Shown: piece by piece, positions 1-38,100 of the stretch
Layout: each line of letters starts with the position of its first letter
Numbering within the stretch: the first letter of the stretch is position 1
Translations under genes and position numbers: made by a program
The notes under the pieces: generated by a model
The model's database searches: none
What the model was told of the DNA's origin: nothing
Seen by the model: only the letters and a program-made list of their open reading frames with translations
Source of the DNA: Phoronis australis
Lineage: Eukaryota > Animalia > Phoronida
Reading direction: 5' to 3'
DNA length: 64,000 nt
Assembly (NCBI GenBank): GCA_002633005.1
Contig: NMRA01000042.1
Span: 828,388 to 892,387, forward strand

Positions 1-1155
1 TGCCGGGTACTTGGGTGGCCGATGCCAGTTACTCCTTTGTCAATTTCTGGCAGACTGCTTAATCCTGGCCTGTGCATGCACTGGTTTGTGGTGCTACATC
101 TGATGGCACGCGTGCCGGAGCCGAACCGTTCGGTGTGGGCCCTGTCTTTCGACTGTGGTTCAAAAGATGTACAGTCCTTACCTCCGCCATTTGTAAGTCA
201 ATCGACCGCGTCTTCTGCTGTAAAAACTTATGCAAGTGCCGCTCGAGCACCATTGAAGGCTCCTGTACTTCCGTCAGCTACAGTACCTCAAGCATTAGAG
301 TCCGCCATAGACTCCCATTTTCATATTGATCGTTTAACAGCAGCCTATCGTTCAAAAGGCAATATTTGCAACAACCGTTTCCTGTCCATACCGGACCTTA
401 CTGATGCGACCCTTCACCGTTCGTCGTCGCATCCTATTAAACTAGTGGGTGGCATCATTGTTTTTTGCGATCCAGCGGAATACCATCGTCGCTCTATTAA
501 GGATTATGTAAGAGCTCTTCCTCAAGGGTTCAAGGCGGTGGTAGGTGTGCACCCAAAACAAGTAAGCAATTTCTCGGAGGCTGCCAGAACAACACTCTTT
601 CAGCTTCTCCGGGAAACTTCCGTCGCTGGTCTTGGCGAAATAGGATTTGAACAGTCCCTGGGTAACGAACGTGAACAGGCTCGGTTCATTGAAGATCTGC
701 TCCGGGACTTCGCAAATCTTACTCGTCGCCATGGAAGTGTGAAGGACAAGACTTTGGTTTTCCATATCCGTTCGGCCTCCCCTGGTTCCCACTATGACTG
801 GGGCTTCCGAACCGTGTTCAACATCGTTGCAGATATTCTTCCGTCGACCCAAAGGATCCACCTTCACACTTTTACGGGGGATACCAATGCTGTTGTGAAT
901 TTTTGCCGACAGTTCCCGAACTGCTATTTCGGGTTCTCCGGCAACTGTAATACCTTCACAAGATGGCAGGTTGATGCTTTGCGGAAGGTACCTGAAGATC
1001 GTCTCCTTTTAGAGACCGACGCGCCTCACTTGTCATTGAAGGAACGCCCAAATTATCCTCAGTTCGTTGGAGAGGTGGCTGAGGTGGTGGCCAAACATCG
1101 CGGCACGACTGTTGCACAAGTCCTTCGTCAGACCGCTAGGAACGCCCGCCGATAG
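1..1155 (+). CDS. TatD-family metal-dependent nuclease (TIM-barrel amidohydrolase fold), intronless, reading frame open past the window's 5' edge; probably retrotransposon-borne
   Basis: Frame 1 is open from base 1 to TAG at 1153-1155. All TatD motifs occur in order: IDSHFH (HxH), GVHP, GLGEIG, VFHIR, IHLHTFTG, YFGFSG, LLLETDAP. No introns, unlike the host genes in this window. Confidence 0.85.
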   Translation, partial: CRVLGWPMPVTPLSISGRLLNPGLCMHWFVVLHLMARVPEPNRSVWALSFDCGSKDVQSLPPPFVSQSTASSAVKTYASAARAPLKAPVLPSATVPQALESAIDSHFHIDRLTAAYRSKGNICNNRFLSIPDLTDATLHRSSSHPIKLVGGIIVFCDPAEYHRRSIKDYVRALPQGFKAVVGVHPKQVSNFSEAARTTLFQLLRETSVAGLGEIGFEQSLGNEREQARFIEDLLRDFANLTRRHGSVKDKTLVFHIRSASPGSHYDWGFRTVFNIVADILPSTQRIHLHTFTGDTNAVVNFCRQFPNCYFGFSGNCNTFTRWQVDALRKVPEDRLLLETDAPHLSLKERPNYPQFVGEVAEVVAKHRGTTVAQVLRQTARNARR

Positions 1156-1750
1156 TATTAAGCTGTAGGCTCGTCGACGGTGATTCCAGCGTGGTTTTGT
1201 TTTGTGTAGTAGCATAGCTAGTTAAATTTTAATAGTTCACTTGAAGTAGCAAAAAGCTACCAGTTATTACCTTTAACATTCCTTTTAAAATTTGTTTTTT
1301 TTCAGTCACTTCAAAACAAAAAATAAAAGAGGCTGATCCAGGGATACTCGTTCGCGGGTAGGTCTGTTCAGTTTCACCAAACTATGCTACCTTATTGTTA
1401 TCTGTTGTGTTAAGTTGATTATCAGTTTCTTTGTTAATTAAGTTGACAATTAGGGTACTCAACGTTCAGTTTTTTTTTATTATTAGCTCATTTTGTTTTT
1501 TTCGTTGTTTTGACTTTTTGCCAAGAATTGGCACTTTTCCTCACATTTTTAGTCGTAAGTTAGGATCCTCAGTCACATTTTTTTTTATAGTTTAGTTACC
1601 GGGCGCCATTGTTGTACTATCATGTCTCATGCTTGAGGCTGTTTGTCCACTAATTAGTAGGTAGGGGGGAATAGTTATAGTTTTTTTTAGTTCCTGTTCA
1701 CATTCACTCCTCATTGTTTCTTTTTCCAATCAGTTCATTTAGTCATTTTT

Positions 1751-1764
1751 AGAGAGGGGAGGAA
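1751..1764 (+). other. Polypurine tract (plus-strand primer) of a putative LTR retrotransposon
   Basis: AGAGAGGGGAGGAA, preceded by a T-run and followed directly by TGTCGTG, the canonical PPT-TG junction. Confidence 0.65.
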
Positions 1765-2256
1765 TGTCGTGAACCTAGGTAGGTATTCGTTGTCCAGTTT
1801 CAATGTCGTCCGTCCTTGTTCGTATGAGTGTTATGGTCGTCCAGATATAGTTATTGTCACGTGACTGGGGAGTTGCCTGCTGGTGTGGATCTTCGCTCTC
1901 TCGTGTGTTGTCCTCCATGGAAAGAGGACGTATTTCTGACAGCGTGTATAAGTCAAGGAATGGACAAGGGTGAGTAGCCTGAAAAGAACCTAAATAGCCA
2001 CCATTCACTACAGTGTGAATAACTCGAGAACAATAGTCAGAACAAGAAATGGTAGCACAAGTGCTACTCCAAGAACTGTATGATGACACTTGGCTTTCCT
2101 CAATTTTCAACTGCAGCCCACTGATCGCTTTTCCATTCGAGGTGAAAGTTTTAACGAAGTTGCGGTAAGTGAGAGAGGCTAGCCCCGGTAGTTAATCTGC
2201 AAGTGAAACTTCGCTTAAAATACTAAATAGTAGGATTTAAGTGCTAGTCCACGAGA
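1765..2256 (+). mobile_element. Putative 3' LTR (~490 bp)
   Basis: Begins TGTCGTGAACCTAG right after the PPT. Ends near CTAGTCCACGAGA (2244-2256), an imperfect inverted copy of the start (expected CTAGGTTCACGACA). The partner LTR is outside the window, so the TSD cannot be checked. Confidence 0.55.
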
Positions 2257-4742
2257 GCACCAGCCATCCAGCAGCAAGGTGGGGGTCAACCAATTTTCAC
2301 CAAATTTGCCACATAGGTAGTCCTATGGGATCCATTAACAGTGGTAAAATATTTCCTCAAAATATTACATTTTACCAAAGTTATAGGCTCAAACACATTT
2401 TATGGCTTCGCAGTCATGTTTTCACGGCATAAAAACTGTCCAGTTTTAACTCTTTATATTTTTCCTTGAATGAAAGCTACTGAACTATTATTCACTTGGA
2501 ATTGTTTAGTGGTGCCTATGGATTGTTATACTGATGTCGTGAAAAAAAGATTCCGATTGACCACCCTCATTTAGTAGTTTTACTACACTGCCCCCCCGTT
2601 ATGCCATTTTGAGGTTATGTTCAGTATCCTGCTGTACCAAATATGCCCCCACTGCTATGAGACTGAAACTTGGCCAAAATGTTGACAAAACATGTTACTT
2701 TCATTGCATAAAATAAAAACTTTGTCAGCCAGTTTATTAGTTTTTCATTTTGACACCTCAAATGTACTAAAATGAGAAATTTTCAAATATGTGAGATCGA
2801 TGCGTGAGAACGTAAAATCAGATTGTCCTTCATGTTTTCGATATCTTGCAACGAATTTGTTCCTCCTGAGTGTTTTAAATGTGTTTCTACTAACCACTTA
2901 GGGCTACAGTACTCCTAGATACCATACATGGCTCCATTTTGTAAAAAGCCGATTATGTCCTCCACAGTGAACAAGGTTAGACACGAACTCGACAAATGTA
3001 GGTTATTATAATTTACGGTTGTTATGGTTTGCAATTTCTTCATGGGTATTTCTTCACACATATTCAAGTCAGATTTTTTGTTGATCAAATGTTCATGCGA
3101 TGCATTGTAATATCAAATGAATGATAAGTTTGGTGGCATAATCGCGGTTTTTCCCACGACTTAAAACAAAAGACTGCAGAAATTTTCCTGACGGAATACC
3201 GGGTTTGCAGTTCTCTAAAAACATTCGAATGACCATGCGTGCACCCAGGGAGGGAGTTCAAGCCCCCCGCCTCATTTGGTGAAGTGAGCAAAAAGGTCCG
3301 CCTCTGAGAAACAACAAGTCTGAGAAAATGAGATAAAAGTCCATTAAACAAGCACAAACGCGCAATTCACAGTGGTGTTACCTTTTTTTTAGTCTGCTGG
3401 TTTTTGTTACCAAAAGGTCCACAACGCCACGAATTCGAGCCCCCCATAATAAAGGCTGGGTGCGCACATGGGAATGACAAGACTCCACTGTCCACCCAGC
3501 GGTTTTCCTTTGTTGTGTCATTGTTGGATATAACGACACAGGTCGCATGGATATAGAACCTCGCATACATCAGACCGTTTCCGATAAATTATCTTTATTA
3601 TAACAACGGGAACAATGAAGATGCTAATCTATTGTTCTCTATGCGACTAGATTTCCCGTGGATGACCACAGACGAGGAATCCAAAAGTATCCACAAACAA
3701 TGACCACGCACCTCAGTAACTATTAATGCGAACACAAATCCTTTCCGTGGAACCTAAACACCAAATTTTTATGTCCATGTACTGTGTTGTATTGCTCATG
3801 GTACGGGTTCAGACTCCATTGTATTAAGATTCAATAAACTTAAGGTAACTGACCGGGCACCAAGGCCGTGTGAGCGCATGCTAATTCAGTGTTTGCTGAC
3901 AAAAAGCTGTTGTGAAACAGTAACTCGATTTCATATGCTATGGTCACATGTTAGAGGAATGTTTATTTAGATATTCAAATACATTATTCACATCATTGTT
4001 ACTATACAACTTTTGCCCTGATGGTTCTGTAAAAGGGCAACTTGACTTCACGACCCCCGACACGTAAATAGATTAATTTTGCAGTTTCGTGGCTAATTCA
4101 CCAAAATAATTACGTGCACCATAGACATCACATAGACCGGGCGCACGCCACTCAGATAAATGAAGCTCACGTTGTCAATATGACGCCATATTGGAGAGTG
4201 TTACACATGACAAAAATGGCGGAAAACAATGGGAGCCCTACGGCATCAATCAGAAAATGCGGGGGCTCGTAGTGTTATGCCTGCAGCCAAAGAGTTAATT
4301 TTTTTGGTCCAGCCCTCGAGTCATGGGTTTTTTGGTTCAGCCATGGAGCTTAGTGGTGCTGCAACTAGGTTTTTATGTTCTGCCACCATTGTTTAAGCGG
4401 AGCAACTATGCATTGTTTCCACATCAGTCTTGGTGATTGAGGACATACAAGATCAATTAAAAAGACAATTATTGACCAGCATATGCTGTTATCCAATGAT
4501 GATCCTGTTTGTTAATTGTAATTAAGTAAATATTTGGCATTAATGAAAATCATAAGTATTTTTACTCGTACTGAAAAACAACATCCCCGAACTTTCTCAC
4601 CAGCCTTCAAAATCAGTACATCTAAATGAATAATGTTCTTTATTGAAATATATACTGCTTTAAAAACTCATTTCTTAACATGTATTTCAAAATCAGATGT
4701 TTTCTGTTATATCAAAACAAATACCTGCAAAATCTGTACTTA

Positions 4743-7625
4743 TAGTCTAGACGCATTTCTGGAAAATGTGCATGTTAGAGGCATTTTTTAGTAAAAGTGG
4801 AGAACCTATCTTTTTAGTATAATTATGGTATGCTGATTTCGATTATGCCTGTTCCCAAGCTGGATTTTGAGTTTTTGACCATCTAATTTGCATAAACAAA
4901 ATAGCCGCCAAACCAACAAGATAAGAAACATTCGTAAGTTCAGGAGTACAATACGAGATGAATAATTAGGAAATTTATGCTTCAAAAACATACTATAAGT
5001 GTGTTTAGATCACTTAAATTTAAGAGCATATTAATGAACGTCATTATATTCCCCAATTATGCTAATTAGCCTCTGCCATTACCAAAAAATTCAAATTTCG
5101 ATGTAACTTTATCAATTTGCAGGCAAACATGACAACTAAGGTGTCTATACCTATGTTTTGAAGGTCTAGAAAAATCATTATGACACATGTGAAGCTTTTT
5201 ATTTCATCTTCACTAAGTTACAAATGCTCATTAATAAAGTCTGAAAATTAAATTAGAAATCATAATCATCAATGCTTTTTTGCGAACATCTCACTATTTA
5301 GATAAGACATAAAAGTATTGTAAACATAACAACATGACTTTTAAATACTGTTGTAAAGAGATGCATGGCCATATCGTCCCATTTTGGACAGGAACATACC
5401 GTCCTCACAGTCGACCAAGCACTCTGCTGCAGATTAATGGAGCTTACGTGGTCGGTCCCAGAATACCAAAATATGTTAATACAGTACCTCGTTTAGTGGC
5501 TCTTCACATATCAATGAACTTTATCAAGGCCATAGAAGATCACATGAGTGATTCCGGAATAGCTGAGGTGTGTATAGAGAGTGCAATACTTGGTCAAGAC
5601 CTATGGAACTGGTCCTCAGTGGAAAGTCGTACAGCAAANTTGCGCACTGGAGATAAATCTTCACTTGCCGAAGTATTAATAGTTAACACATCGACTGTCC
5701 TGAAACAATTCAACTTCATGACTCGCCCGCTTGTCTCATTATTGATGGCGAAGCATTGCTGGTAGCTCTTGGGAAGCTTGATGGTGATGTGACCTTCGAG
5801 AACCTGGCTGATTCATTCATGAAAACAGTGCTAAACATTGGATTTCGATATCATAAAATTGTCATTGTATTTGACAGATACAGACAAGAAACTATGAAAT
5901 ACACAACAGGAAAACAGCGTAATAAAGGAATACAGAAAATCAGGTGATTTTTGGAAGGCCGTGGTGTACCTCTTCCTCAAAACTAGTCAAATTTTCGGGC
6001 ACTGGCTGATAATAAAGAAGACCTAGCACATTTCTTATCAGGGGATCTGTGTTTGTAGACGCCTGAAGATAAAGAGTTTATGGTTGCAGGAGGGTTCAAA
6101 GATGAGCTGGAAGTAAATTAAATCATCTAAGGTTATGGCTGATTTGAGGACTCTGAAATCCACACATGAAGAAGCAGATGCAAGATTGGTACTGCATGCT
6201 GTCCACAGTCAGTCGTATTTCCAGGGACCCCCGATGTTCTATTTCTTCTGGTATCGCACTTCCAACAAATGCAAAGTGAGCATATCTGTATGATGTCAGG
6301 CACATCAAAGAAGTGTCGATATATACATACTGAAGCACTTTTCAACAAACTACTAAGAGACTCAGCAACATCCTTGTTTGCTTTTCATGCCGTGACACCA
6401 ACTCGTACTTTGCCAATCATACGAAACAATCATCATGGAAGGTGTTCCTGGACCATCACAGATTGCTTAAGAACCCCTGCATTGGTGAAATCACTGAGCA
6501 AATTACGGTGGCTTCAGAAGTATTTGTCTGCAGAATATACAACAGGACCTGTAGATGTAGCACGCCATTTACTATTCTCCAACCCCGTGAACCCAGAAGT
6601 CCTTCCCCCTAACCCATAATGCCCACCGTTTCCATCTGATGAGAGTGCACTATCAGGTCAAGGTATGGCGAAATGATCATTATTCCATACCTGAGCTCCC
6701 AGCACCCTCTGATATGGGAGGGACACACAAACTTATGCTTGCAGCCCATACTGATGACACAGAGTTCTATCCCAGACAGCTGCCTAAAGATGGTATTGTG
6801 TGCATGCCAGAAACAACGCAACAGCAGACAATGCATATCATTATGCTCATGCCAGCAGCACATTCCTTGTATGCACACAGTTTGTTTTGCCTGGCTTTAG
6901 GCATGTTAAAAAGTAACAAAAAGTGAATGCTAAAACTGTGTTCAGCAGGCCTGAAAATAATTCATGCAACTGAGAATTTAATGTCTTCAATAGCAATAAC
7001 TATATTGATTTTTTATGAATGGAAGATAACGGGATAGTGTAAACATTTGTCCTATATTCCATCAAACTAGTGACACCTTGCTTGACGAGCATTGCAGATT
7101 AATGACTATTTTTTCCACATTCTGAAAGTATACATCTATAACCCAATAAATATGAAATAAATTGTTCCAAAAAATGTCTTTAGCATGTTTGTTGACCATG
7201 AAAATATAAGTATAAACAACTCATTTTTCAAGTTAGCCTGCAGGAACACAAACTTAAGACACAAATTACATTGTATGGTAATGGCGGCACCTAATTTGCA
7301 TAATTAGTTTTCAGAATTGCATTTTTTAGTGTTCAGAAGTGATTATTGCTCAAGAAGTATTTATAAGAAGTGTACAGGTGAGACATTTCACCATTTTAAA
7401 TGGTATATGGTGATTTCTATTACAAAAATACATCTGAACTTGACAATTTGGCCGCCATTTTGTTTATGCAAATTAGATGGTCAAAAATGCAAAATTCGGC
7501 TTGGGAACAGGGTTAGTTGAATTCGCCATACCTTGATTGTGTGAAAAACTCTTGTTCCCAACTTTTACTAAAAAATGCTTCTAGAACCTTATACAGGGCT
7601 CTTTTCAGGAAATGCGTCTAGACTA
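4743..7625 (+). mobile_element. AcademX-type DNA transposon relic (DDE transposase, XPG-like nuclease and Cys-rich fragments), internally deleted and frameshifted
   Basis: Long TIRs starting TAGTCTAGACGCATTTC / GAAATGCGTCTAGACTA, with inverted homology extending several hundred bp. 3-bp TSD TTA (4740-4742, 7626-7628). Degenerate peptides: LHISMNFIKAI..HM..SG, VIVFDRY, NKEDLA.FL, HEEADARLVLHA, AFHA, YQVKVWR, CACQK..C..CSC. Confidence 0.75.
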
Positions 7626-10684: not shown

Positions 10685-12720
10685 GGCGGCAATGCTGAAA
10701 AGCAGACATCCCTGTCGTGTTGAGTCAGCTCGTCTAAACAAAGGTATGATGTGCATCAGCTGCGCAGATGCTGCTACCTTTGAGTATCTCAAGCAGGAGT
10801 GCCAGAATTTGACTCCAGCTGAGGCAGACCCAAGGTCTGCATACCATGTCATGAGTCCCGGGGTCCTGCCCCTCATGCATAAGGCCATCTGTCATGTCTC
10901 GGTCGACATTGCAGTGAGCAAGGAGGAATATTTCAATCTCCTTGATATCAGCAATCCAGATCAGGACGTGACAAAAGTTCACTATGTATCAGTTTGAGAG
11001 AACAAACCTAGTGCACAGTGCCCTACCAAGGGTCTAAGCTTTGTAATGGCCATAGAAGAATCTGCATGGCTAGTGCTCAAGGCAGTGGACTTCAAGCCTT
11101 ACTGCGGTCTTGGCAGGGTCCCTTTTAGGAACAAGACGGCTAAGCCTGCAGCTTGGAAAGTTGTAGCTGCTACGGCCACTAGGCCTTGTGCAGTGGTCGA
11201 GTCAGCCACAGAAACTGGTGCCGAAGATGTGGATAACACCAAGTTGACCTACGTGGAAGAAGGCGTCAAAGCTGACAAAGGCCGTGTGGTGGCCAAAATG
11301 GTCATTTCTGGCCTTCATCCAGTTGTAGTAACAGGTGATCAGCTGCGTGCCAACACCCCCAACTTGGTCGACCACACTGCAATTTTTGCAGTGTCGGGAG
11401 ATTCTAGTGAGGGGATGCATGTGAGTGACTGGTGACACACTAGCACGCTTCATGATGAGGAGCAGTTAATATTTTTACATTATAATTATGCTGCCTTTTC
11501 TCAAGTTTGGCATATAAATCTGCATCATGCCAGAAAAATCATCTGTTCTCCTGCAGCAGACTGAATAAAGATACTTGTTGTTTGTCTTTGATTCAGGAGC
11601 CTCACTGCAAGGGGAACACCATGATTGATGTTCCTAGAAAAGCCAAATTACATACATCATGGCTTGACACCAATTTGAGGCCAAGAGCAGCTGTTTTGGT
11701 GTCCAAAGACATATCATCAAGACCACTGCCAGACTTCTGTGACAGAGACAGAATGGCTGTACATGGAACCTTACTCGTCCAAATAGACTTGCCCGCACTG
11801 TTTGGTGGGTTTCGGCATACATGCCGGGTGACTCAGTTGAGGAACCTCCACCTGAGATGGTGCAGCACATTACACAACATTGTAGCAGCAATGGCATTCC
11901 ACTTGTAATTGGCTGCGCGGATGCTAATGCACATCATAACGTGTGGAACAGTACTGTCACTAACTCGAGAGGTGAATCCCTGTTAGAGTTCATTGTCAGC
12001 ACTCTACTGAATATTTGCAACAGAGGTCACAAACCCACTTTTGTTGTTCAGAATCGCCAAGAGATTCTAGATCTTACTTTGACTAGTATACCTGCAGCAG
12101 ATCTGGTGAAGAACTGGAGAGTTGACCTTTGTCCTCTCTCTCGGATCACAGATATATCAGGTTTGAGATGGCATTTTCTGCTATCCCCTTCTACACTGAG
12201 TACAGGGATATCAAAAAGGCTGATTGGCATATCTTCAATGAAGATTGTTCCAACTCACTTGATAACCTTGACAGTGGAAAACTCAACACTTTTACTGATG
12301 TTGATTTGCTGGCAAATAATGTCACAGCTGTGCTGACTAATGTCATCAATGTTGCCTGTCAAATGAGGATGGTGAGGCTTACTGGTAAACCTAATCGCCA
12401 AATATGGTGGACCAAAGAACTTGCATCTCTTCAGAAGAAGACAAGAAAATCTCATTGGAATGCTCAGCGAGTAGACACTGAAGAGGACTGGAACGCCTAC
12501 CATCAGGCAAACAGAACCTTCAAGTCTGCTACACAAAGGGCAAAAAGGAGCTCGAGGAGAAATTTTTGTTAGCAATCTTCAAGTTGGTCAGCAACAGCAA
12601 AACTTGTTCAGATTCGGAAGAAGGACAAGACTGCTCAGTTGGAGACTGTCCAAGTCCAACGAAAAGACGGTTCATACACCAGTTCACCTGGCGAAACTCA
12701 GGGCCATGCTAGATAAACAC
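10685..12720 (+). mobile_element. Non-LTR retrotransposon relic (LOA-like): ORF1 remnants and APE endonuclease, truncated before RT
   Basis: Frameshifted APE motifs LIQEP, RPRAAVLVSK, (S)AYMPGD, IGC-DANAHH..WNS..TNSRGESL, ILDLTL, SDHRYIRF, then WWTKEL. No RT core is seen. Confidence 0.8.
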
Positions 12721-13049
12721 TAAAAATTAAAACCGAGACCAGCAAGAGATCTTTTATCTAATGCAGCTGCTACAATATGGAATTCTCTTAACCCAGAAAT
12801 TAAACGTTCCAATGGGGCTATTCGGAAAATCTACAATAACTAGAGGGCGCATGAGGAACCCTTTCCAGCTGAAAATTGACCGTCGGACGGCCTTCGTCCG
12901 ACGGTTGGAGTTTGCTAATGCGAACACAATAGCCCATTGAATTCAGTCCAGCTGCCTGGGCTGCTTGGTCAGGTACGTAATCCTTTAATGACACCTCATT
13001 ATGCCATAAAACTACGTGCCTGTCGACTATTGGCAAAAAAAATAAAGTA

Positions 13050-16000
13050 GCCTAAGAGCTACGTCGGAGCCTGCCTGCGCCGCCTCCGGCAGCTTGGCTG
13101 AGGCCCGCCTAAGTGCTACGTCGGACCCTGCCTGCGCCGCCTCCGGCGGCTTGGCTGACGCCCACCTAAGTGCTACGTCGGAGCCTGCCTGCGCCGCCTC
13201 CGGCGGCTTGACTGAGGCCCGCCTAAGTGCTACGTCGGAGCCTGCCTGCACGGCCTCCGGCGGCTTGACTGAGGCCCGCCTAAGTGCTACGTCGGAGCCT
13301 GCCTGCGCCGCATCCGGCAGCTTGGCTGAGGCCCGCCTAAGTGCTACGTCTTAGCCTGCCTGCGCCGCCTCCGGCCGCTTGGCTGAGGCCGCCTAAGTGC
13401 TACAACGGAGCCTGCCTGCGCTGCCTCCGGCTGCTTGGCTGAAGCCCGCCTAAGTGCTACGTCTGAGCCTGCCTGCGCTGCCTCCGGCTGCTTGGCTGAG
13501 GCCGGCCTAAGTGCTACGTCGGAGCCTTCCTGCGCTGCCTCGGGCTGCTTGGCTGAGGCCCGCCTAAGTGCTACGTCGGAGCCTGCCTGCGATGCCTCCG
13601 ACTGCTTGGCTGAGGCCCGCCTAAGTGCTACGTCGGAGCCTGCCTGCGCTGCATCCGGCTGCTTGGCTAAGGCCCGCCTAAGTGCTACGTTGGAGCCTGC
13701 CTGCGCTGCCTCCGGCTGCTTGGCTGAGGCCCGCCTATGCGCTACGTCGGAGCCTCCCTGCGCTGCCTCCGGCTGCTTGGCTGAGGCCCGCCTAAGTGCT
13801 ACGTCGGAGCCTGCCTGCGCTGCCTCCGGCTGCTTGGCTGAGGCCCGCCTAAGTGCTACGCCCGGGCCTGCCTGCGCTGCCTCCGGCAGCTTGGCTGAGG
13901 CCCGCCTAAGTGCTACGCCCGGGCCTGCCTGCGCTGCCTCCGGCAGCTTGGCTGAGGCCCGCCTAAGTGCTACGCCCGGGCCTGCCTGCGCTGCCTCCGG
14001 CAGCTTGGCTGAGGCCCGCCTAAGTGCTACGCCCGGGCCTGCCTGCGCTGCCTCCGGCAGCTTGGCTGAGGCCCGCCTAAGTGCTACGCCCGGGCCTGCC
14101 TGCGCTGCCTCCGGCAGCTTGGCTGAGGCCCGCCTAAGTGCTACGCCCGGGCCTGCCTGCGCTGCCTCCGGCAGCTTGGCTGAGGCCCGCCTAAGTGCTA
14201 CGCCCGGGCCTGCCTGCGCTGCCTCCGGCAGCTTGGCTGAGGCCCGCCTAAGTGCTACGCCCGGGCCTGCCTGCGCTGCCTCCGGCAGCTTGGCTGAGGC
14301 CCGCCTAAGTGCTACGCCCGGGCCTGCCTGCGCTGCCTCCGGCAGCTTGGCTGAGGCCCGCCTAAGTGCTACGCCCGGGCCTGCCTGCGCTGCCTCCGGC
14401 AGCTTGGCTGAGGCCCGCCTAAGTGCTACGCCCGGGCCTGCCTGCGCTGCCTCCGGCAGCTTGGCTGAGGCCCGCCTAAGTGCTACGCCCGGGCCTGCCT
14501 GCGCTGCCTCCGGCAGCTTGGCTGAGGCCCGCCTAAGTGCTACGCCCGGGCCTGCCTGCGCTGCCTCCGGCAGCTTGGCTGAGGCCCGCCTAAGTGCTAC
14601 GCCCGGGCCTGCCTGCGCTGCCTCCGGCAGCTTGGCTGAGGCCCGCCTAAGTGCTACGCCCGGGCCTGCCTGCGCTGCCTCCGGCAGCTTGGCTGAGGCC
14701 CGCCTAAGTGCTACGCCCGGGCCTGCCTGCGCTGCCTCCGGCAGCTTGGCTGAGGCCCGCCTAAGTGCTACGCCCGGGCCTGCCTGCGCTGCCTCCGGCA
14801 GCTTGGCTGAGGCCCGCCTAAGTGCTACGCCCGGGCCTGCCTGCGCTGCCTCCGGCAGCTTGGCTGAGGCCCGCCTAAGTGCTACGCCCGGGCCTGCCTG
14901 CGCTGCCTCCGGCAGCTTGGCTGAGGCCCGCCTAAGTGCTACGCCCGGGCCTGCCTGCGCTGCCTCCGGCAGCTTGGCTGAGGCCCGCCTAAGTGCTACG
15001 CCCGGGCCTGCCTGCGCTGCCTCCGGCAGCTTGGCTGAGGCCCGCCTAAGTGCTACGCCCGGGCCTGCCTGCGCTGCCTCCGGCAGCTTGGCTGAGGCCC
15101 GCCTAAGTGCTACGCCCGGGCCTGCCTGCGCTGCCTCCGGCAGCTTGGCTGAGGCCCGCCTAAGTGCTAGGTCGGAGCCTGCCTGCGCTGCCTCCGGCTG
15201 CTTGGCTGAGGCCTGCCTAAGTGCTACGTTGGAGCCTGCCTGCGCTGCCTCAGGCTGCTTGGCTGAGGCCCGCCTAAGTGCTACGTTGGAGCCTGCCTGC
15301 GCTGCCTCTGTCTGCTTGGCTGAGGCCCGCCTAAGTGCTACGTTGGAGCCTGCCTGCGCTGCCTCCGGCTGCTTGGCTGAGGAACGCCTAAGTGCTACGT
15401 GGGAGCCTGCCTGCGCTGCCTCCGGCTGCTTGGCTGAGACCCGCCTAAGTGCTACGTGGGAGCCTGCCTGCGCTGCCTCCGGNAAGTGCTACAACGGAGC
15501 CTGCCTGCGCTGCCTCCGGCTGCTTGGCTGAGGCCCGCCTAAGTGCTACGTCTGAGCCTGCCTGCGCTGCCTCCGGCTGCTTGGCTGAGGCCCGCCTAAG
15601 TGCTACGTCGGAGCCTTCCTGCGCTGCCTCAGGCTGCTTGACTGAGGCCCGCCTAAGTGCTACGTCGGAGCCTGCCTGCGAAGCCTCCGGCTGCTTGGCT
15701 GAGGCCCGCCTAAGTGCTACGTCGGAGCCTGCCTGCGCTGCCACCGGCTGCTTGGCTGAGGCCCGCCTATGCGCTACGTCGGAGCCTCCCTGCGCTGCCT
15801 CTGGCTGCTTGGCTGAGGCCCGCCTAAGTGCTACATCGGAGCCTGCCTGCGCAGCCTCCGGCTGCTTGGCTGAGGCCCGCCTAAGTGCTACGTTGGAGCC
15901 TGCCTGCGCTGCCTCCGGCTGCTTGGCTGAGGCCCGCCTAAGTGCTACGTTGGAGCCTGCCTGCGCTGCCTCCGGCTGCTTGGCTGAGGCCCGCCTAAGT

Positions 16001-16310
16001 GCTACGTGGGAGCCTGCCTGCGCTGCCTCCGGCTGCTTGGCTGAGGCCCGCCTAAGTGCTACGTGGGAGCCTGCCTGCGCTGCCTCCGGCTGCTTGGCTG
16101 AGGCCCGCCTAAGTGCTACGTGGGAGCCTGCCTGCGCTGCCTCCGGCTGCTTGGCTGAGGCCCGCCTAAGTGCTACGTCGGAGCTTGCCTGTGCTGCCTC
16201 CGGCTGCTTGGCTGAGGCCCGCCTAAGTGCTACGTCGGAGCCTGCCTGCGCTGCTTGGCTGAGGCCCGCCTATGTCCTACGTCAGAGCCTGCCTGCGCTG
16301 CCTCCGGCTA
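13050..16310. repeat. GC-rich 57-bp minisatellite, ~57 copies
   Basis: Unit approx. CCTAAGTGCTACGTCGGAGCCTGCCTGCGCTGCCTCCGGCTGCTTGGCTGAGGCCCG. A central block of 23 identical CCCGGG-variant units spans 13861-15120. Confidence 0.97.
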
Positions 16311-18389
16311 CTTGGTTGGGGCGTGGATTGCCTTGTAACAGGTTTTAGCGTAGTTCTCGTCTTTCCCGAATCCTAAAATCACAAAAACGTAGACTCGCAA
16401 AAACCGTGCAAATTCACAAAACTTTGATGGTTTTCTTTCTTTTAGTGACTTTATATATCAATCTGCCATTAATTGGGTCCCTTGACCATATTTTTAATAA
16501 GATTCGGGAAAAGGGAATACATTCATAACAAAACAGTGGAGTCGATAACATGACCAAATTTCTTTTTATATAAATATTCTTTAAGATGGAATCTGAAATA
16601 TGCCGATTCTGTTTTTAGTAAAACCTTTTCGTTTGAGCAATGTTTGTCAGTTTTTCATGAAATTACTGAAAGTCCCTGTTTTAACTAGCCCTCCCATGCC
16701 AAGGTAGATCAGTCAAAAGACAATCTCTAAAAGCCTGATGGGGAACAGTGCATAAAATACAAGATCTGAAAGTTTTTATTGAAATCCTATCAGCCCTTTG
16801 CAAGATATGTTTTCCGCCTTACCAAGTTTAAACATTTGTCTAGGATCTCCCATAACCTTTACCGGATGCTTGAACACTTTTCTTTTACCGCGCAGTGAAT
16901 GATGTCGTATAACTGTTGGTCTTCACATACGCCATATGTTGATCACATCAGGTGTTGACTAACGGGTAAGCAGAAAGTCCTGGGTTCAAACCTTGGTGGG
17001 GACAGAAAGCACTTTATGTGTAACTATGTAACACCTGACGCCAACAAATTGACAGACTTCAACAGAAGTCTCCAAGACTGCCAAATTTGGATAAACTTCT
17101 GGCCAGAGTAATTTGTTAGTTTACGTAGTCGAACTTTCGTCAGAGTTGAATGTCGTCATTGTGTCTAGTCCTTAATTTTTTGCGCAATAAATTGTTTTTG
17201 TTGAGATTAAGCTAGAATTGGATTGGATTCTATTGGAAAAGAAACAAATATTTTATTAGCCTTGTCAAATTACGACATTGTGTAGTTTAGTTTGAAAAAT
17301 ACTGTATGCCAGCCTTTGTGCCTTTACAGAGTATGTTTTATGTTGTATCATAATTTGGTGGTATGTTGGAAAAAATAAAAACTTAGACCTGTCCATGCAG
17401 ACATTGTTAAAGCAAAGACATATTCTTATTTTTAAATATCTTTAAAAACTATCCACCATTTTCGTCGTAACATACATCGTCTCCAGTGAGAGACTCCGGT
17501 CCACCTGCACTAACATGGAGAACATGTTATCCGTGACCCCCTGAGCTTTCCAAAAGGAATAGGCCCAACTCGAGGATTTCATTTTTGTCTATGAAAGTGT
17601 CTCATTAAAGGTATTAATTTTTTATAAAATCGAAAATTTGAAACCCTATACTGTTTTAAGTACTGGTTAAATTTGAAATTATGTAGAAGACGATTGCTAA
17701 TGCGTTAGAGTAGTATCAAGAACAGGAATTGAGTTTACAGTTTATTGTAATCTGCGAGAGAAAGCTTGCTTCACCACTTAGTTTTTTGTGAAATGAAAAG
17801 ACATTGATTCCAAGTTTTCTTATTAAAGGGAACAGTATTTTGTTCTGAATTAATTTAGCATACAGCTTTGTACCAAGACAAGGGCAACGGATGGTGTCCT
17901 ATGTCCGCCCTCTTGGACGACACCTTTTTCGCAGAGTTTGAACAACTAGGTGCCATACAAAAAGGCATGAAGAATTTTTTACTACACTGGCTAACAGTAA
18001 ATAATAAGAATCGGTGATACAATTATAAAACGCGATGTAAACTTTGTCCACCCAATGCCCCAATATGGAGCAGAAATATGTGATAAGCAGTCGATGCCCT
18101 GTCAACCACTGACATATCAGCCAATCAGAGAATGCTGTCAGCATTAGTGTTTTTACAATAAAATGTGAATCAGTTTTGTTTGGAGCGCAACTCGGGCAAA
18201 TGTGAGTTTTATGTGTTTGTTGGAACCGGTTTACTGCTGCATTATTTTTACTACAGTCATCTTTTAAACTTGGCATTGGGTAAAAATTAATCGCCGATAA
18301 TTTACAGGGATAGAAAAAATTGTTCATAATGTCTTGTAATCTTTCAGGGAATGCTTACTTCACAACATAGGGTTTGTAAAGCGAAAATA

Positions 18390-23200: not shown

Positions 23201-26200
23201 AGTGCCGAACATTGAATGCATTACAATAGAACAAAAATTGATGTCATTTCTTTCTCAGATTATGTTTCAATTAAGATTTTATGCAACGTCCGATATTTAG
23301 GGTACGTCCGATATTTAGGGTACGTCTGATATTTTGGTACACTATGTGTACAACACTACTAACTAACAGTTACCTAGTTCTAGATCTAGCCTAGGGATAG
23401 GGCCAGGCTAGACAGTACCACTGTCTCGACTGGCCCTAGTAGAGACAGTGACGCTCCTATAGGTGCTTCATGCACCAGAAGCTTTTCGGCAAATTATGCC
23501 TCACACTGATTAAAACATATATATCAAAGTCACGTTGCTATACTTCTGCGCATATTAGAGGGACACCTTGGGATGAGGCTGTCGATGTCTTTCATTCCTT
23601 CCAACCTGAACAAATATTCATGGAATCAAAAAATGTTTTCAAGCAATCCTTCGTTCAGTTGCCCAAATCGGCAACTGGCTGGTTTTTGCACTGTGCGCCC
23701 TCCTATTTTTATACAGCGTGTGCCTGAAAACTTCAGGCATATGAGCATCATGACAAGGTAAAAATTACACAGCCAGTGATGCGGAATCTCTGGGTTCAAA
23801 ATTTAAGAGTTGCGTAGTTTCAAATTTAGTGTTCATTGCACATTGTTCCCAAAAATCATGGGGCAAAAATACGATATTTAGGACGTCCAAAATGCTGTGA
23901 TAACTGAGAAATATTTTTGGACCGTATACGCATTTCATGGACCACAAAAAACATTGCAAATAATCACTGTCCCAAAATGGCAGGTTGCCCATGAGATTTT
24001 ACCGTAACTCAGTGTAGAATAGTTGTCATGCTAAATTTGTATGGAGTCTTCAATATAAAATAGTAACAAGAACAAGGCGAGAGTTGAAATGGGCCCGTGA
24101 ATGCACCGCTTCTAGGGTTGTTTATTTGCATCATAAAATGGCCACTAGATGGCGCAAAAATGTCCATTCCATCCGTGAACGGGAACATGCCATTGCTTCT
24201 TTAATAGAAAACTATTTGTCAATTTTCATAGAAATCTGTCATGGAACTTCAGAGATTCAAAGGTAAACGGAAAAAAATGAAATTTTCACTTGGAGGCACA
24301 GCATTTGTTGGTTCCTCCTGAAAGTCGTCCTCATCTGGTAACGTCATATAAAGTACACTTAAAATTTAATAAAGATCCTTCAGTGGGTTTAGGAGATACA
24401 GCTATAGGGTCAAAACAAAACAAAACCTCCACTAGGAGGCGCCACAGTAGTTGAAGTCGTCATCGTCAATCGTCCTCTTCACATTGAGGAAGGCAATTTT
24501 CAAAATCATCGTTGGAAAGGTTTAGTTGATAGAAAAAAACACCAAAAAAGGCCAATAGGTGGTGCAAACTACGTCAAATCCATCCCAAAACTTAAATTGC
24601 CACTAGGGAGTACACCGGTAGTCGGGTCCGTCCGAAAGTTCGCTCATACCGCCTCATCCATGAAAGGAACACGTGCAAAATTTCATGAACATATGTCAAG
24701 GGGTTGTGGAGATAGTCGCAGACGCTGGACAGACGGACGGGGATGATGGCATAATGTGTACACATATAAATATGTGGCCGCATATAAATAAAACGAGCGT
24801 CGGTATTAAAATATATTTTAGTACCGACGCTCGTAGTTTTCATTGTTACTATTTTTATTTTATATTATTCATCGGTAACTGCACGGCATTCCAGCATCTA
24901 TTTGATATATTTATTAATAATTGAAGGCAATATCATTTTAAGGTTATGTAGGACCTTATTGACAAGTTTTTGTATTTAACTAAATATCTAAACTGTGTGT
25001 ATTTTTTGATTGTTGACTTTTTTCAATGTGCCATTAATTGGGTTATGTGGCTGTGCATTTTTGGTAAAATTTGCAGAGAATAACATTGATAGCAAATCAG
25101 CAGTATCCATGACATGACCAAATTTTTATAGAAGTACAACTTTTGAATTGTTTGTGAAAATCATTTTTCGATAGCCCTTATGCAAAAATAGGTCATTTTA
25201 AAAACAGTTCCCAATAGCATTTGACAGATCATGGGCATGATACAATGGCATCACATGGAATAAATATCTTAGACTGAGTGCTGTTGCAGCGCTACTGACA
25301 CAGTTCATTCATAAAATACCCAATACTACAGTTGACCTTTCATTGGTGAATAAACTGATGGAACCTGCAGCATACCATGATCGCCGATTTACCAGAACAG
25401 GAGGGGTTATTGTCCAACTCTGCTGTACTGCCCCCCTTGCCCATAAAGTGGTTATGTTATAGAATGACAAATCTGCCTTAGCTCTATCACCATGCTTTAT
25501 TTTTTCCAGTACAACTGTCTGATTCTCGGAAAGAAAAACAGGCTAACTATGCTGCTATGTCTCTCCTGGAGTTCTTCAATGTCAGCGACGGCTTAGATAT
25601 CACATGGGCTCACGCTGTGAACAACAAGTTTCAGCTGCAAGATGCTCTCAAAAGTAGGTGTTTATATAGAAATAAAGGCAGAGCAGCACCATTGTAATTA
25701 GAGTCAAGTACAAACCGCAATCTTCAGACTGGAATAAATTAAGTCAGTGGCGATGAATAGTCCTGCTGAAGTAGTCAATGAATTATCATTGGTTTTGTCA
25801 TGTGTAAGGCAAACGCGACCCAAAAGGATGGTTTTCAAGGATGGTGCTACATGGGGCTATAAATATGAACTACCCAGGTATGCTGCTGCTGCTGCTGCAC
25901 TGCATTTAATAAATGAAACTTACAGGAAGGCACAATTGGGAGTGGCACCTGTGATTCTTAAATCTTAATCACAATATCTGGTTGTAGAATTCTAAGCAGG
26001 AGGTGGCAGAGGAACATGTGACAATGTATGCGATTGGATGCGATGTTTCCTCTGGAGGTCACTTGTATCCAGTCCCACATTATCAGTCGCCACATTGATA
26101 CTTTAAAGTTTCCCATTGTCTCTGAAATGTTATTTTTTGTAATCAGAGGTGTTGAAAGGAACACTGAGGGTACAGTGGTGTTCGTCTGCAGTTACCATTT

Positions 26201-27252
26201 TGTTGTGAAACATGCCCCTAGAAATTATTTGGCATTTCCACATGGCACGCTCTCATGTATATTGTGATGATGTAGATAAGAGGCTTAGGCAACCTAATGT
26301 GAATAAGGAGTGCAATCAGTGTGACCACTGCCATCTCTAAGCAAAAGAAACTCATGACAATAAACATGTTTTTGATATGTGCTATTCATCTGTCAGTACC
26401 AGATTTGGAATGCCCGATTCCACGGCGGTTGGGATCTGATTTGGTGTTTTGCCAATGATATTATCGCTGACCACTTTTACCCGATGGAAATGTATAGTCT
26501 TTGCAAATCCTGGGATTGCGGATGCAGTGTTACCCCAGTTGGCAATTCTCAACGTGTCTTATCCCGTTTTAGGTGATGTTATGATGCTTGAGACTGACAT
26601 TCTGCTCAGGGGTCAGGGCACCCCCAATCAAGTAGACATCCCAGTTATGGCTCACCCTCCCCTGGTCGACAGTGATAATACTTTTGAGGACTGGCTGACA
26701 GAAGTTCTTAAAACAACTAAGGGAATGAAGCTAGATTTTAAAAGCATGGATGCTCTTGGACCAGTGTTGGATATTTTAATCTCAAAAAGAGATGATATTC
26801 GCCAACCCATCTGGTTCAACATGGATATACTTACGGGTATAAACACTAACAGCTCCAAAGCCAACGCAAGCCTGTTCGTTCCGACAGTTATTGAAAGGTT
26901 CCCCCAATGTACGCTATCTCTGGGATGGACAACTCATTGGACCAATACGGCTGCGGATAAAGGATACACTCGTGCCATGGTGACAGAAATGGCGGGAATA
27001 TGCAATAAAATAACCCAGCCTGTTACATTTCCTGTTCGTGCTGCCGCGGTAAGGCAATCATGGACACATATTAAATGGTTGTTGGACCAGTCAGATAGGT
27101 ACACGTTGACTATATGGAGTGGTGCTAATGATAGAGTTGATGCTGATGACATGGTATTCGTGCGAAATCAAACAGATATACGACAAGTGTATTACGACCT
27201 ACCTGAGCCTCTGAACACAGAATTTATGAAGAAGCTAAAAGTAAAAACGTAG
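20215..27252 (+). CDS. FAM151B: FAM151B / menorin-like protein (PLC-like phosphodiesterase fold, DUF2181), 305 aa, N-terminal hydrophobic anchor
   Basis: join(20215..20308,25510..25653,26573..27252) = 918 nt with GT-AG introns, both phase 1. Motifs DGLDITWAHAVN, MMLETDI, PVMAHPP..DSD, KGMKLDFKS, PIWFNMDIL, LSLGWTT, VTFPVRA, TLTIWS, VYYDL. Exon 1 (MFRRHVSFKVLIGIAVVLWLYQL) is the least certain part. Confidence 0.88.
20964..22644 (+). mobile_element. Complete Kolobok-like non-autonomous element with decayed THAP domain, in FAM151B intron 1
   Basis: TIRs AGGAGAATGCCACCC / GGGTGGCATGCTCCT with TTAA TSD (20960-20963, 22645-22648). Frameshifted THAP remnant from ATG 21138: MLQCIVPACPN ... FFLLPRE..MLRKWL...HLRVCG. 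Confidence 0.8.
24065..24790 (-). mobile_element. DINE-1/Helentron-like non-autonomous element (HINE), copy 1
   Basis: Reverse complement of the family at 37647, 43121, 45268 and 51888: T-run, subterminal hairpin, GTCY microsatellite, ~145-bp central repeats, 3' stem-loop ending CTTGTT. Confidence 0.75.
24942..25210 (+). mobile_element. Second TTAA-flanked (Kolobok-like) repeat family, left end; other fragments at ~16440-16858, ~27420-27633 and ~57300-57471
   Basis: TTAA|GGTTATGTAGGACCTTATTGACAAGT is the inverse of ACTTCTCAATAAAGTCCTACATCACC|TTAA at 27608-27637. Internal blocks are shared between 16457-16560 and 25023-25125, and between 27427-27515 and 57305-57390. Confidence 0.5.
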
Positions 27253-35103: not shown

Positions 35104-38100
35104 ATGTCTGGAGGTGAACTTCCCAAGGAACCGTATGTCCTGTCTGTGGATATTGGTACAACCAACATCCGTGCACACATTTATGACAAAGAGGCCACTG
35201 TCAAAGGAACTGCCATGAGAAAGGTATTGCACGGCACTGATATTGAAGGTGGAAATGTTGTAGACTTGAACTTGAGGTGATGTTAGTACTCTTTGAACAC
35301 TCAGTAATTTTAGGCAAAATAAGATGATTTTGTGAACAAAATAGCCATTTTTGGCAAAAAAGCTATAGAACCATAAAATGTCACATATTTCAGACAAAAA
35401 CTATTATTGCCAAAACTGGCCCATTTTCATTTTCAATATCTTAACATTGTTGTGAATAGTCAAACCTTTTTCAAAGTATTGTCTGTTCCCAATAGACAAT
35501 TTAACACATATTGTTTCTCTTTTGTTTTTCCAATTGATTGTCAATTTAAATTGAGTGTCTTAGGTTATGAAGTTAAAATGTGCATGTCAATGAATTTTAA
35601 ATATTTGCCCCAAAATCTTACAAAAAATGCCCCTGAGCAAAAACAGTTGACGGTGTTAGCTTAAAAATACTTCTATTTAGTCAGTCACTAGATTCAAGGA
35701 CAAAATGGTACATGTAAGATCTTAGAAACTTTCAAATCATAGGGCTTGACACTTACTAGTAGCATAACATTAACTAGCCAAATCCAACCTGGCAAAATTC
35801 CCAGGTCTCCACATGGGAACTGGTTGCTATAACAAGACAAGCCACAAACGACTCATAGTAGAGCAAGGACCAGAAATGAAATAAACGAGATACTGGAGTG
35901 ATTTGAGTGGTATGTGTGCTTCTTTTTTCAGATAGAGCTCCTTCACCCAGAGCCGGGCAGCTGTGAAATTGATGAAAAGGTTTTATTGGAGCAGTTTATC
36001 GGAGTTGTGAAAGATGCTGTTAAAGGTAGATCTGTTGTGGCTGACACTGCAGTAGACATCTTGCTTCAATGTTAGACACTGCTCATCGCAGAAAAAATGA
36101 TTAAGAGCGTTAGAATTGCATTGGAGAATGATGAAAGTATTTTTGATTTTGGTGTTTGAAAATAGCTTCTCAATACCCAGCATTCCACTGACCATGCATT
36201 TGTGTTTGTAGTTAATTTACACTTACAAACTGGGACATGAAGACTTTGCTCCATGTAACAGTAAAGTATCACCAATTTTGGACAAACATGGGTCCCAAAA
36301 TTATTGTTTACCAATTATCATAGGCTTATGACGTGGCTGTGAATGCCTTTAATTCAATAAAAAATTGTGTGGTGGTAGTTATAGTATCAAAAACTTTAAA
36401 AATGTTTTCTTTTGGTACTGTTTAACTTTTATGAAAAAAATGATAAGATTTCAATTTCAGTAATATTGCGTGACAGATTGGTGAGGTTTTAGCGTATGCA
36501 ATGTGTATTCTTTTGCTTTGTAGTTGAATGGGTAAACAGGTAAGATTTGAAAGTTCCTTTCAACTGGGTTTTGCATGTTACATACAATAATCATTATCAT
36601 CCTTATACCTGACTTATGCATTAATGAGCACAACATTGAATTACGCAGTAAACATGTATTTTTGCGACAATGGCACAGTTTCATGGTCTGCAGTAATCCC
36701 TATTAATCTTGAATCATCCGAGAAGGTCCTTGGGGCTCCAAGGGGCCAAGACAGCAGTTTTTGGAAGTTCAAAACTGATGTCTTGTTCCGTAATAGTCCA
36801 GGGAGATGCTGCTGTGTTGGCCCATGTTCATCCAGGGCTGTATGTTTAGGTCCACCATGGTCCTTGTAGGTGCTGTGTTAGCCTCTACTCATTCAAGGCT
36901 GTCAATATCACTGCCATTTTGTTCCATTGTTTCATAGTGACTGTCTGGGATGATCCATTGCCATCCATATAGGCACCATGTTGATTCTGTGTTGCTGCCA
37001 CGCTTGCCCAGATTCGTCCTTGTAGCTTGTCTATTGCTACTGGCATGACGGTCGTCTAACAGCCATCAAACCCAAAAAATGAGCCTGGATTATCCCAGAT
37101 CTTGATTCATCGGGATCGGGCGCTTTCCAGGACTGCCGTGTTTATCTGCTTCATGGAACTGAGGCTTAACTAAATTGAAATTCTGCCATTGAATTATCAA
37201 CAAGTAAATGGCTAAACGAGTAAATGGCTAGCAACTTCCGTTATTAGTTTATTAGCACTAGGAATCTGTGTGTGTGATGTTTAAAGTAATCGAGCAGGCA
37301 TTGTCAAAACAAGGTCACCCCGATGATCACTTAGCTGTAAAACACCTGCAGAATTCAGGCCATTTTTGTGGTTGCTGTATTACGTTCCATGGATAGACTG
37401 CAGGGCCAATGTGTATCATTACAGCCACTGCGAATGGATTTGCATCACATTTCATTTTTCATGAATACGGGCAAACTGGTACAAAAATGACAACTTTTTA
37501 ACTCTTAACAATTTGGGATTAGCTACAATGATTCATTTAGTTCCTTTCTTTTGTGTCTCAAGAAAGATAAGCAGTAAGCTCTCATAACTGCACAATGGCG
37601 GTTTAATTTCTGAACAGGTGTTAATTAGGTTTGTCTCTCTCTCTCTTATTATGCCCCGTCATCTCCGTCCGGCGTCCATCCGTCCGGCGTCCGCTGTTCT
37701 ATCTCCAAAACGCCTTGACTTATATTCATGAAATTGTGCACATGCGTTCATTCTGTGGATGGGAAGGCATGAGCGAACTTTCGGACAGATCCGACTTCTG
37801 GTGTGCGCCCTAGTGGCAATTTTATTTTTTTACGGTTACCTCTTCAAAAGTCCTGAACGGATTTTCATAAAATGTGGTATATAGGCACCTATTAGTGAGA
37901 TGACGCTATCCTTTCATTTTCAGATGGATTTGTCATAGTGTGCGCCACCTAGTGGCCATTTTTACTGTTTTCGAGTCTGTTTTTTTGAATCCACCCCTCT
38001 ATCAACCAAACTGCTCAAAGGATGATTGTGAAAATTGGCATGTATGTTCTTACTATAAAGTGGACGGCTGACGATGATTTTCCAACAACTTCAACAACTG

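Follow-up and report, generated by a model that had tools for sequence, protein, structure and literature searches.

The TatD ORF at the start of the window

The window, that is, the whole 64-kb stretch of DNA analyzed here, opens inside a protein-coding gene, which we refer to as ORF3. Its frame +1 is unbroken and intronless from base 1 to the stop codon at 1153–1155 and is followed by a T-rich spacer, a polypurine tract (PPT), and a segment that is likely the 3′ long terminal repeat (LTR) of a retrotransposon (Table 1). The Pfam family TatD_DNase matches amino acids 103–384 of the ORF (E = 3e-33). All six metal ligands are kept (H106 and H108 of the HxH motif, E213, H255, H289, and D340), as is E338; the N-terminal HxH together with the E, H, H, and D ligands places the domain in group II of the TatD proteins. 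An AlphaFold model of the window ORF had a pLDDT of 84.8 and matched TatD structures at E about 1e-14, so that both the model and the structure searches assign a TIM-barrel TatD fold to the protein.

Table 1. Features at the left end of the window (all on the plus strand).
Feature	Position	Details	Basis
3′ part of ORF3, 5′ end open	1..1155	384 aa, frame +1	
Zinc-finger/helical domain of ORF3, terminal piece	1..129		Profile positions 88–128
S/A/P-rich linker, predicted disordered	130..306		pLDDT under 50 for aa 52–82
Group II (HxH) TatD domain	307..1152		Pfam, ligand residues, predicted model
Ligand codon H106	316..318		
Ligand codon H108	322..324		
Ligand codon E213	637..639		
Ligand codon H255	763..765		
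Ligand codon H289	865..867		
Codon E338	1012..1014		
Ligand codon D340	1018..1020		
Stop codon	1153..1155	Two codons earlier than is usual in the family	Family alignments
T-rich spacer	1156..1750	595 bp, 43% T	Composition
Polypurine tract, family type	1751..1764	TG follows at 1765	
Likely 3′ LTR	1765..2012	248 bp, TG...CA, 8/10 terminal inverted repeat	3′-end matrix
Splice-donor-like motif	1967..1975	46 nt before LTR end	Shared with relatives' LTRs
LTR extension proposed earlier; flanking DNA more likely	2013..2256		Inverted repeat, 3′-end matrix

An earlier note on this DNA had described the region upstream of the TatD domain as unrelated to it. This description does not hold: residues 1–43 match the end of a zinc-finger/helical domain that is characteristic of the family, weakly (10.0 bits) but better than the best of 1000 shuffles (6.6 bits).

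The PPT and the LTR of the window copy

The spacer had been put at ~600 bp and called T-rich, in agreement with the values in Table 1; in relatives, the distance between ORF3 and the PPT is about 70 to 760 bp at most loci. A matrix of the PPT-LTR junction was built from the junctions of 13 relatives, the window being excluded, and used to scan both strands of the 64 kb. The junction at 1749–1773, which contains the PPT recognized previously, ranked first with 24.2 bits, just below the leave-one-out range of the matrix (25.8–35.1 bits); the next scores were 15.6 and then 5.7 bits. In the window, a PPT is thus immediately followed by a likely 3′ LTR that starts with TG, as is found in Ty3/Gypsy elements. 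Weaker look-alikes of the junction were seen at 4252–4276 (15.6 bits) and, on the minus strand, at 2570–2605 (4.8 bits).

The LTR had been proposed to span ~490 bp. Its TG start and its terminal inverted-repeat similarity were borne out, but its end more likely lies at 2012 than at 2256, judging from sequence comparison with relatives. The inverted-repeat match is 8/10 for both candidate ends. In a matrix of relatives' LTR 3′ ends, 2012 was the top among 800 positions (8.7 bits), while 2256 scored −2.1 bits. The LTRs of 13 relatives, bounded by the PPT or flank and by a primer binding site (PBS)–like motif that starts with TGGCG in 11 of the 13, are 221–340 bp long. The alternative end at 2256 is disfavored by the resulting length (492 bp), by termination in GA, and by its negative score. 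We therefore provisionally take 1765–2012 as the LTR, given its length, its CA end, its top rank in the matrix, and the donor-like motif close to its end.

Neither the spacer nor the LTR recurs within the window or among the relatives' loci, and no pol or gag match was obtained anywhere in the 64 kb, downstream sequence and the opposite strand included. A DNA profile built on relatives' LTRs did not match the window LTR; since LTR bodies are too diverged, only LTR ends were usable for comparison.

Relatives carry ORF3 downstream of Gypsy gag and pol

The window copy begins inside ORF3, and the element context was read in the loci of relatives. A search with a family-specific alignment retrieved 43 loci from metagenomes, and a further 14 came from bacterial genome bins. 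Two of these (L040 and L041) were false matches with no TatD match and a bacterial-type context and were dropped. Among the remaining 55 loci, 31 have a pol end upstream, 23 are too short upstream, and 1 has no pol. Thus, the end of a Gypsy pol (integrase and/or PHD finger) lies on the same strand just upstream of ORF3 in 31 of 32 informative loci, the sole exception (L043) being a truncated TatD piece. Where both were mapped, the distance from the pol end to the zinc-finger domain is 467–1644 bp. Gag, pol, and ORF3 are found together at 10 loci, in this order on eight contigs and permuted on two.

Pfam analysis of 29 ORFs from 11 long loci revealed HhH, PNMA-like (capsid), and CCHC domains in gag and PR-RT-RH-IN, the Gypsy order, followed by a C-terminal PHD finger in pol. 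Gag followed by PR-RT-RH-IN is present in L012, L029, L035, L053, L059, L062, and others, and paired LTRs were recognized in L053 (96.8%) and L062 (98.9%). In viral contigs, the first alignment detected five generic TatD loci; the family-specific alignment detected none. By these comparisons, the 3′ end seen in the window (ORF3, spacer, PPT, and LTR) very probably belongs to a Ty3/Gypsy retrotransposon.

Two further observations concern these loci. In L012, L029, L035, L053, L059, L061, and L062, integrase ends in a PHD finger and gag, in most of them, starts with HhH; no paper on this combination in Gypsy elements was found in the literature searched. Public bacterial bins (Sedimenticola, Ca. 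Thiodiazotropha) contain 14 contigs, L049–L062, that are Gypsy retrotransposons of animal type, several of them nearly full length, in which ORF3 is annotated as bacterial TatD. These contigs are likely host DNA contaminating the bins.

ORF3 proteins share two domains upstream of TatD

The closest homologues of the window protein, encoded by ORFs that reach about 1100 aa, are neither host TATDN nor bacterial proteins. Their names point to molluscs (Dreissena, Ruditapes, Saccostrea, Pinctada, Haliotis, and Plakobranchus), sea urchins (Lytechinus), a hemichordate (Ptychodera), and a brachiopod (Lingula). Several homologue clusters contain many member sequences, with 47 in one Dreissena cluster.

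Full-length relatives, of about 670–1100 aa, are built alike: a helical N-domain comes first, followed by a disordered stretch with clusters of basic residues and then by a C2H2-like zinc-finger/helical domain, and the TatD domain forms the C terminus. In the model of a full-length relative, the folded parts lie at about aa 6–90, 256–405, and 443–720, and one relative's model matched TatD structures with Z of 26–29. Since the fold searches used the full-length model, their result lists were filled by TatD, and the upstream domains were hardly probed. The zinc-finger/helical domain had no match in Pfam and no Atlas match at 0.9 or above. Its profile matches 678 protein clusters (50% identity clustering); among the best 150 of these, TatD is present in 51 of the 54 that have at least 300 aa after the domain. 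A word-based search with the same domain returned only four proteins, others being crowded out.

ORF3 contains no transmembrane segment (19-residue hydropathy maxima of 0.97–1.72 in 18 proteins), and neither hydropathy nor predicted models show the transmembrane anchor of an envelope glycoprotein. Clusters of basic residues, defined by a loose pattern, occur in 15 of 17 full-length ORF3 proteins.

Origin of the ORF3 TatD domain and selection acting on it

The phylogenetic relations were assessed on quick trees, which do not include TATDN1, TATDN3, or eukaryotic outgroups; three motif-lacking proteins were omitted from the first tree, and the domain alignment left out five rows (four with stops and one near-duplicate). 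The window TatD falls inside the ORF3 clade (support of 92 in the first tree and SH-aLRT of 100 in the later one, where it stands loosely beside the full element L021), and this clade is separate from the TATDN2-like and bacterial TatD sets. A branch with support of 99 and 95 separates the TATDN2-like set from the window protein, which is thus not a TATDN2 orthologue on these trees. ORF3 is a sister to the TATDN2-like set and is not nested within it.

ORF3 shares sequence signatures with TATDN2-like proteins. H287 is present in 49 of 53 ORF3 and 8 of 8 TATDN2-like proteins and in 0 of 23 bacterial ones; W301 is present in 53/53 and 6/8, respectively, and is not among the commonest bacterial residues; C156, found in 48/53 and 8/8, is likewise not a bacterial signature; and an F305-P306 insertion is common to ORF3 and TATDN2-like proteins and absent from the bacterial sample. 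Median scores against the ORF3 profile were 171 bits for TATDN2-like proteins and 114 for bacteria. In the reverse test, the TATDN2 profile ranked bacteria above ORF3. The family profile put TATDN1 and TATDN3 far below YcfH. On balance, the signatures suggest that the ORF3 TatD domain is probably of TATDN2 type in origin.

For 11 elements in which both domains are available, the integrase and TatD trees have 6 of 8 inner branches in common, with a single supported conflict (L050+L057), and the distances are correlated (Mantel rho of 0.73, reached in 0 of 2000 permutations). This co-inheritance fits one capture followed by vertical inheritance. The proposal, made earlier from the window alone, that a lineage of LTR retrotransposons has captured a TatD gene is therefore upheld at the level of the lineage by the pol upstream of ORF3, the PPT and LTR after it, and the agreement with integrase.

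Selection on the captured gene had also been postulated. The dN/dS values of the TatD domain in four close pairs of relatives are 0.39, 0.29, 0.13, and 0.12; one distant pair gave 0.14, and synonymous sites were saturated in the other 7 of 12 pairs. ORF3 is thus under purifying selection in the relatives.

State of the window copy

The claim that the window contains an intact, intronless TatD ORF has to be qualified. The frame is open and all motifs are there, but the stop codon precedes the usual end by two codons (48/56 relatives retain the C-terminal motif), and E217 and F301 replace D217 and W301, which are invariant in 53/53 and in 56/56 relatives. The terminal branch of the window protein is also long (0.98–1.06). 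This copy's ORF3 may therefore be entering decay.

A stronger version of this view accepts the capture in the lineage and regards the ORF3 of this particular copy as a recently dead, unselected passenger, with which the slightly low score of the PPT junction would also agree. We consider this a real possibility, somewhat short of an even chance: 384 codons are open without a frameshift, the ligands are complete, the model is confident, and the CpG observed/expected ratio is 0.94, while the long branch may merely reflect an unsampled host lineage.

Metal ligands are conserved in most and lost in some relatives

Among the loci retrieved, the invariance of the ligands is in part a product of the pattern used for searching. 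Another set consists of proteins chosen by the zinc-finger/helical domain alone from the best 150 clusters. In this set, all six ligands are present in 43 of 56 near-full TatD domains. In the other 13, which represent at least six separate lineages, ligands were lost, three or more of them in 9 proteins. Since 43 domains retain the full ligand set across roughly 30% identity, catalysis appears to be the norm; the 13 losses imply that it is not always needed. Long open frames with at least three ligands lost include P0147, P0148, P0170, P0197, P0209, P0244, P0280, and P0287; in P0147 and P0148, the zinc-finger domain is present twice.

Expression and possible functions of ORF3

A donor-like motif is found in the final 95 nt of 13 of 13 LTRs (mean of 1.3 and maximum of 7 in shuffled sequences), compared to 1 of 13 in a control stretch. 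A pyrimidine-rich, acceptor-like AG follows the pol stop at about 14 of 15 junctions, as judged by eye and without a control. The combination predicts that ORF3 has its own spliced, env-like mRNA, with a donor near the LTR end and an acceptor just past the pol stop. If so, the protein would not be made as part of Gag-Pol. With its basic clusters and without a transmembrane segment, it is likely nuclear.

TatD enzymes are 3′→5′ exonucleases and AP endonucleases (PMC10085689), and in humans TATDN2 breaks down the RNA strand of R-loops (PMC10711561). By analogy with TATDN2, ORF3 could strip R-loops of their RNA strand or trim single-stranded DNA or RNA, possibly at the transcribed or newly integrated copies of the element. 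That ORF3 is an accessory nuclease whose substrates are RNA:DNA hybrids or single-stranded by-products arising from the element is a prediction that we make tentatively, at rather less than even confidence; the RNase H that the element already encodes speaks against a catalytic role. As a whole, we favor the reading that the window holds the 3′ end of a Gypsy element whose ORF3 was captured once from the TATDN2 family and serves as a predicted accessory nuclease, and we consider this combined reading probable.

As the main alternative, the same element may use ORF3 as a putative counter-silencing factor that binds or degrades small RNAs or the nascent transcripts targeted by silencing, with binding mattering more than catalysis. 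Metal ligands have been lost repeatedly in long open ORFs, while the structural residues D217 and W301 are invariant (56/56). This would fit the alternative, as would the two extra folded domains, and PMC5408684 raises silencing roles for DEDDy ORF3s, citing the catalytically dead Maelstrom and EXD1. Retention of all six ligands in most relatives despite their low identity argues for catalysis, however, and we find the alternative rather doubtful. Also speculative, and in our opinion unlikely in its entirety, is a broader scenario in which an old Gypsy lineage, with hundreds of divergent families in marine invertebrate phyla, would have captured the host R-loop RNase TATDN2. The captured protein, nuclear and tethered to chromatin, would remove the RNA:DNA hybrids or nascent RNA through which hosts detect and silence the element, and it would repeatedly have been turned into a binding-only pseudonuclease. 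If true, this would be an undescribed transposon counter-defense, concealed in databases under the labels of host, and even bacterial, genes.

That the window ORF is a host TatD gene or processed retrocopy with a purine run after it by coincidence, or else an ORF3 that has been domesticated, is very improbable: in databases, relatives do appear under host gene names ("YcfH-like" or "TatD") and the window has no second LTR copy, but the protein belongs to the element clade rather than to the TATDN2-like host proteins, retains the element-specific upstream domain, and is followed at the usual distance by the family's PPT-LTR junction.

Comparison with known systems

Returning to the favored reading of a captured accessory nuclease, the closest known case, by analogy, is the DEDDy 3′→5′ exonuclease encoded by ORF3 of the Juno and Vesta LTR elements of bdelloid rotifers (PMC5408684). 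In both cases, the ORF3 slot holds an enzyme gene that is not env, the enzyme is of the 3′→5′ exonuclease class, and catalytic residues are kept; the bdelloid ORF3s are described there as separate spliced units, whereas splicing is predicted here. The fold is DnaQ-like in the rotifer enzymes and a TIM barrel in TatD, and the TatD ORF3 is fused to two extra domains without a Pfam match. While the bdelloid ORF3s are family-specific, the TatD ORF3 appears, from protein names, to have been passed on vertically together with pol in molluscs, echinoderms, hemichordates, and brachiopods. The word "TatD" occurs 0 times in PMC5408684.

With group II TatD proteins (TATDN2, TATDN3, YcfH, and YjjV; PMC10085689 and PMC10711561), ORF3 shares the HxH motif, the full ligand set, and the fold, as well as TATDN2-type sequence signatures. 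Unlike these proteins, ORF3 is intronless, multicopy, and mobile, forms its own clade, differs in N-terminal architecture, and has lost ligands in some lineages.

The resemblance to env is one of position and predicted expression. The env ORF3 of errantiviruses and retroviruses sits between pol and the PPT. The TatD ORF3 occupies the same place and has the predicted splicing from an LTR donor to a post-pol acceptor, but it carries an enzyme domain, not a fusogen, and no transmembrane segment.

That TatD is not known as a described cargo of LTR elements, as remarked in the earlier note, agrees with our literature search, which covered sources other than Repbase and subscription journals and found no relevant paper linking TatD to LTR retrotransposons, Gypsy, or transposons. 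A review of accessory domains lists the chromodomain and a DnaQ-like exonuclease (PMC6338049), and the main texts of mollusc and annelid LTR-clade surveys (PMC6238403 and PMC8556966) do not contain "PHD," "TatD," or "ORF." Enzyme ORF3s are already known, and the TatD ORF3 is real and widespread.

Accessory genes reveal what retrotransposons need beyond gag and pol. Here, a nuclease that keeps its active site is spread over at least several hundred divergent families, judging by the clusters that hold the linked domain, and the defined, expressible ORF3 protein makes it possible to study how LTR elements in animals deal with RNA:DNA hybrids or evade silencing. The results also correct the annotation of these ORFs, which are entered as TatD genes of hosts and, where symbiont bins include contigs of animal retrotransposons, as bacterial genes.

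Other features of the window

Elsewhere in the window, a pair of 151-nt inverted repeats (78%) surrounds broken ORF pieces without a Pfam match at 4776–7583. This segment looks like a decayed DNA transposon, perhaps one resembling Academ. A frameshifted fragment of a non-LTR endonuclease (Exo_endo_phos_2, E = 2e-17) lies at 11743–12572, and a GC-rich 57-bp tandem array of about 57 copies, many of them identical, occupies 12940–16350. The long open frame at 26440–27252, which matches Menorin (PF10223, E = 4e-81), is likely a host exon. A repeat of roughly 450 bp is present in many diverged copies scattered over 37700–53300, with an inverted copy at 24135–24792.
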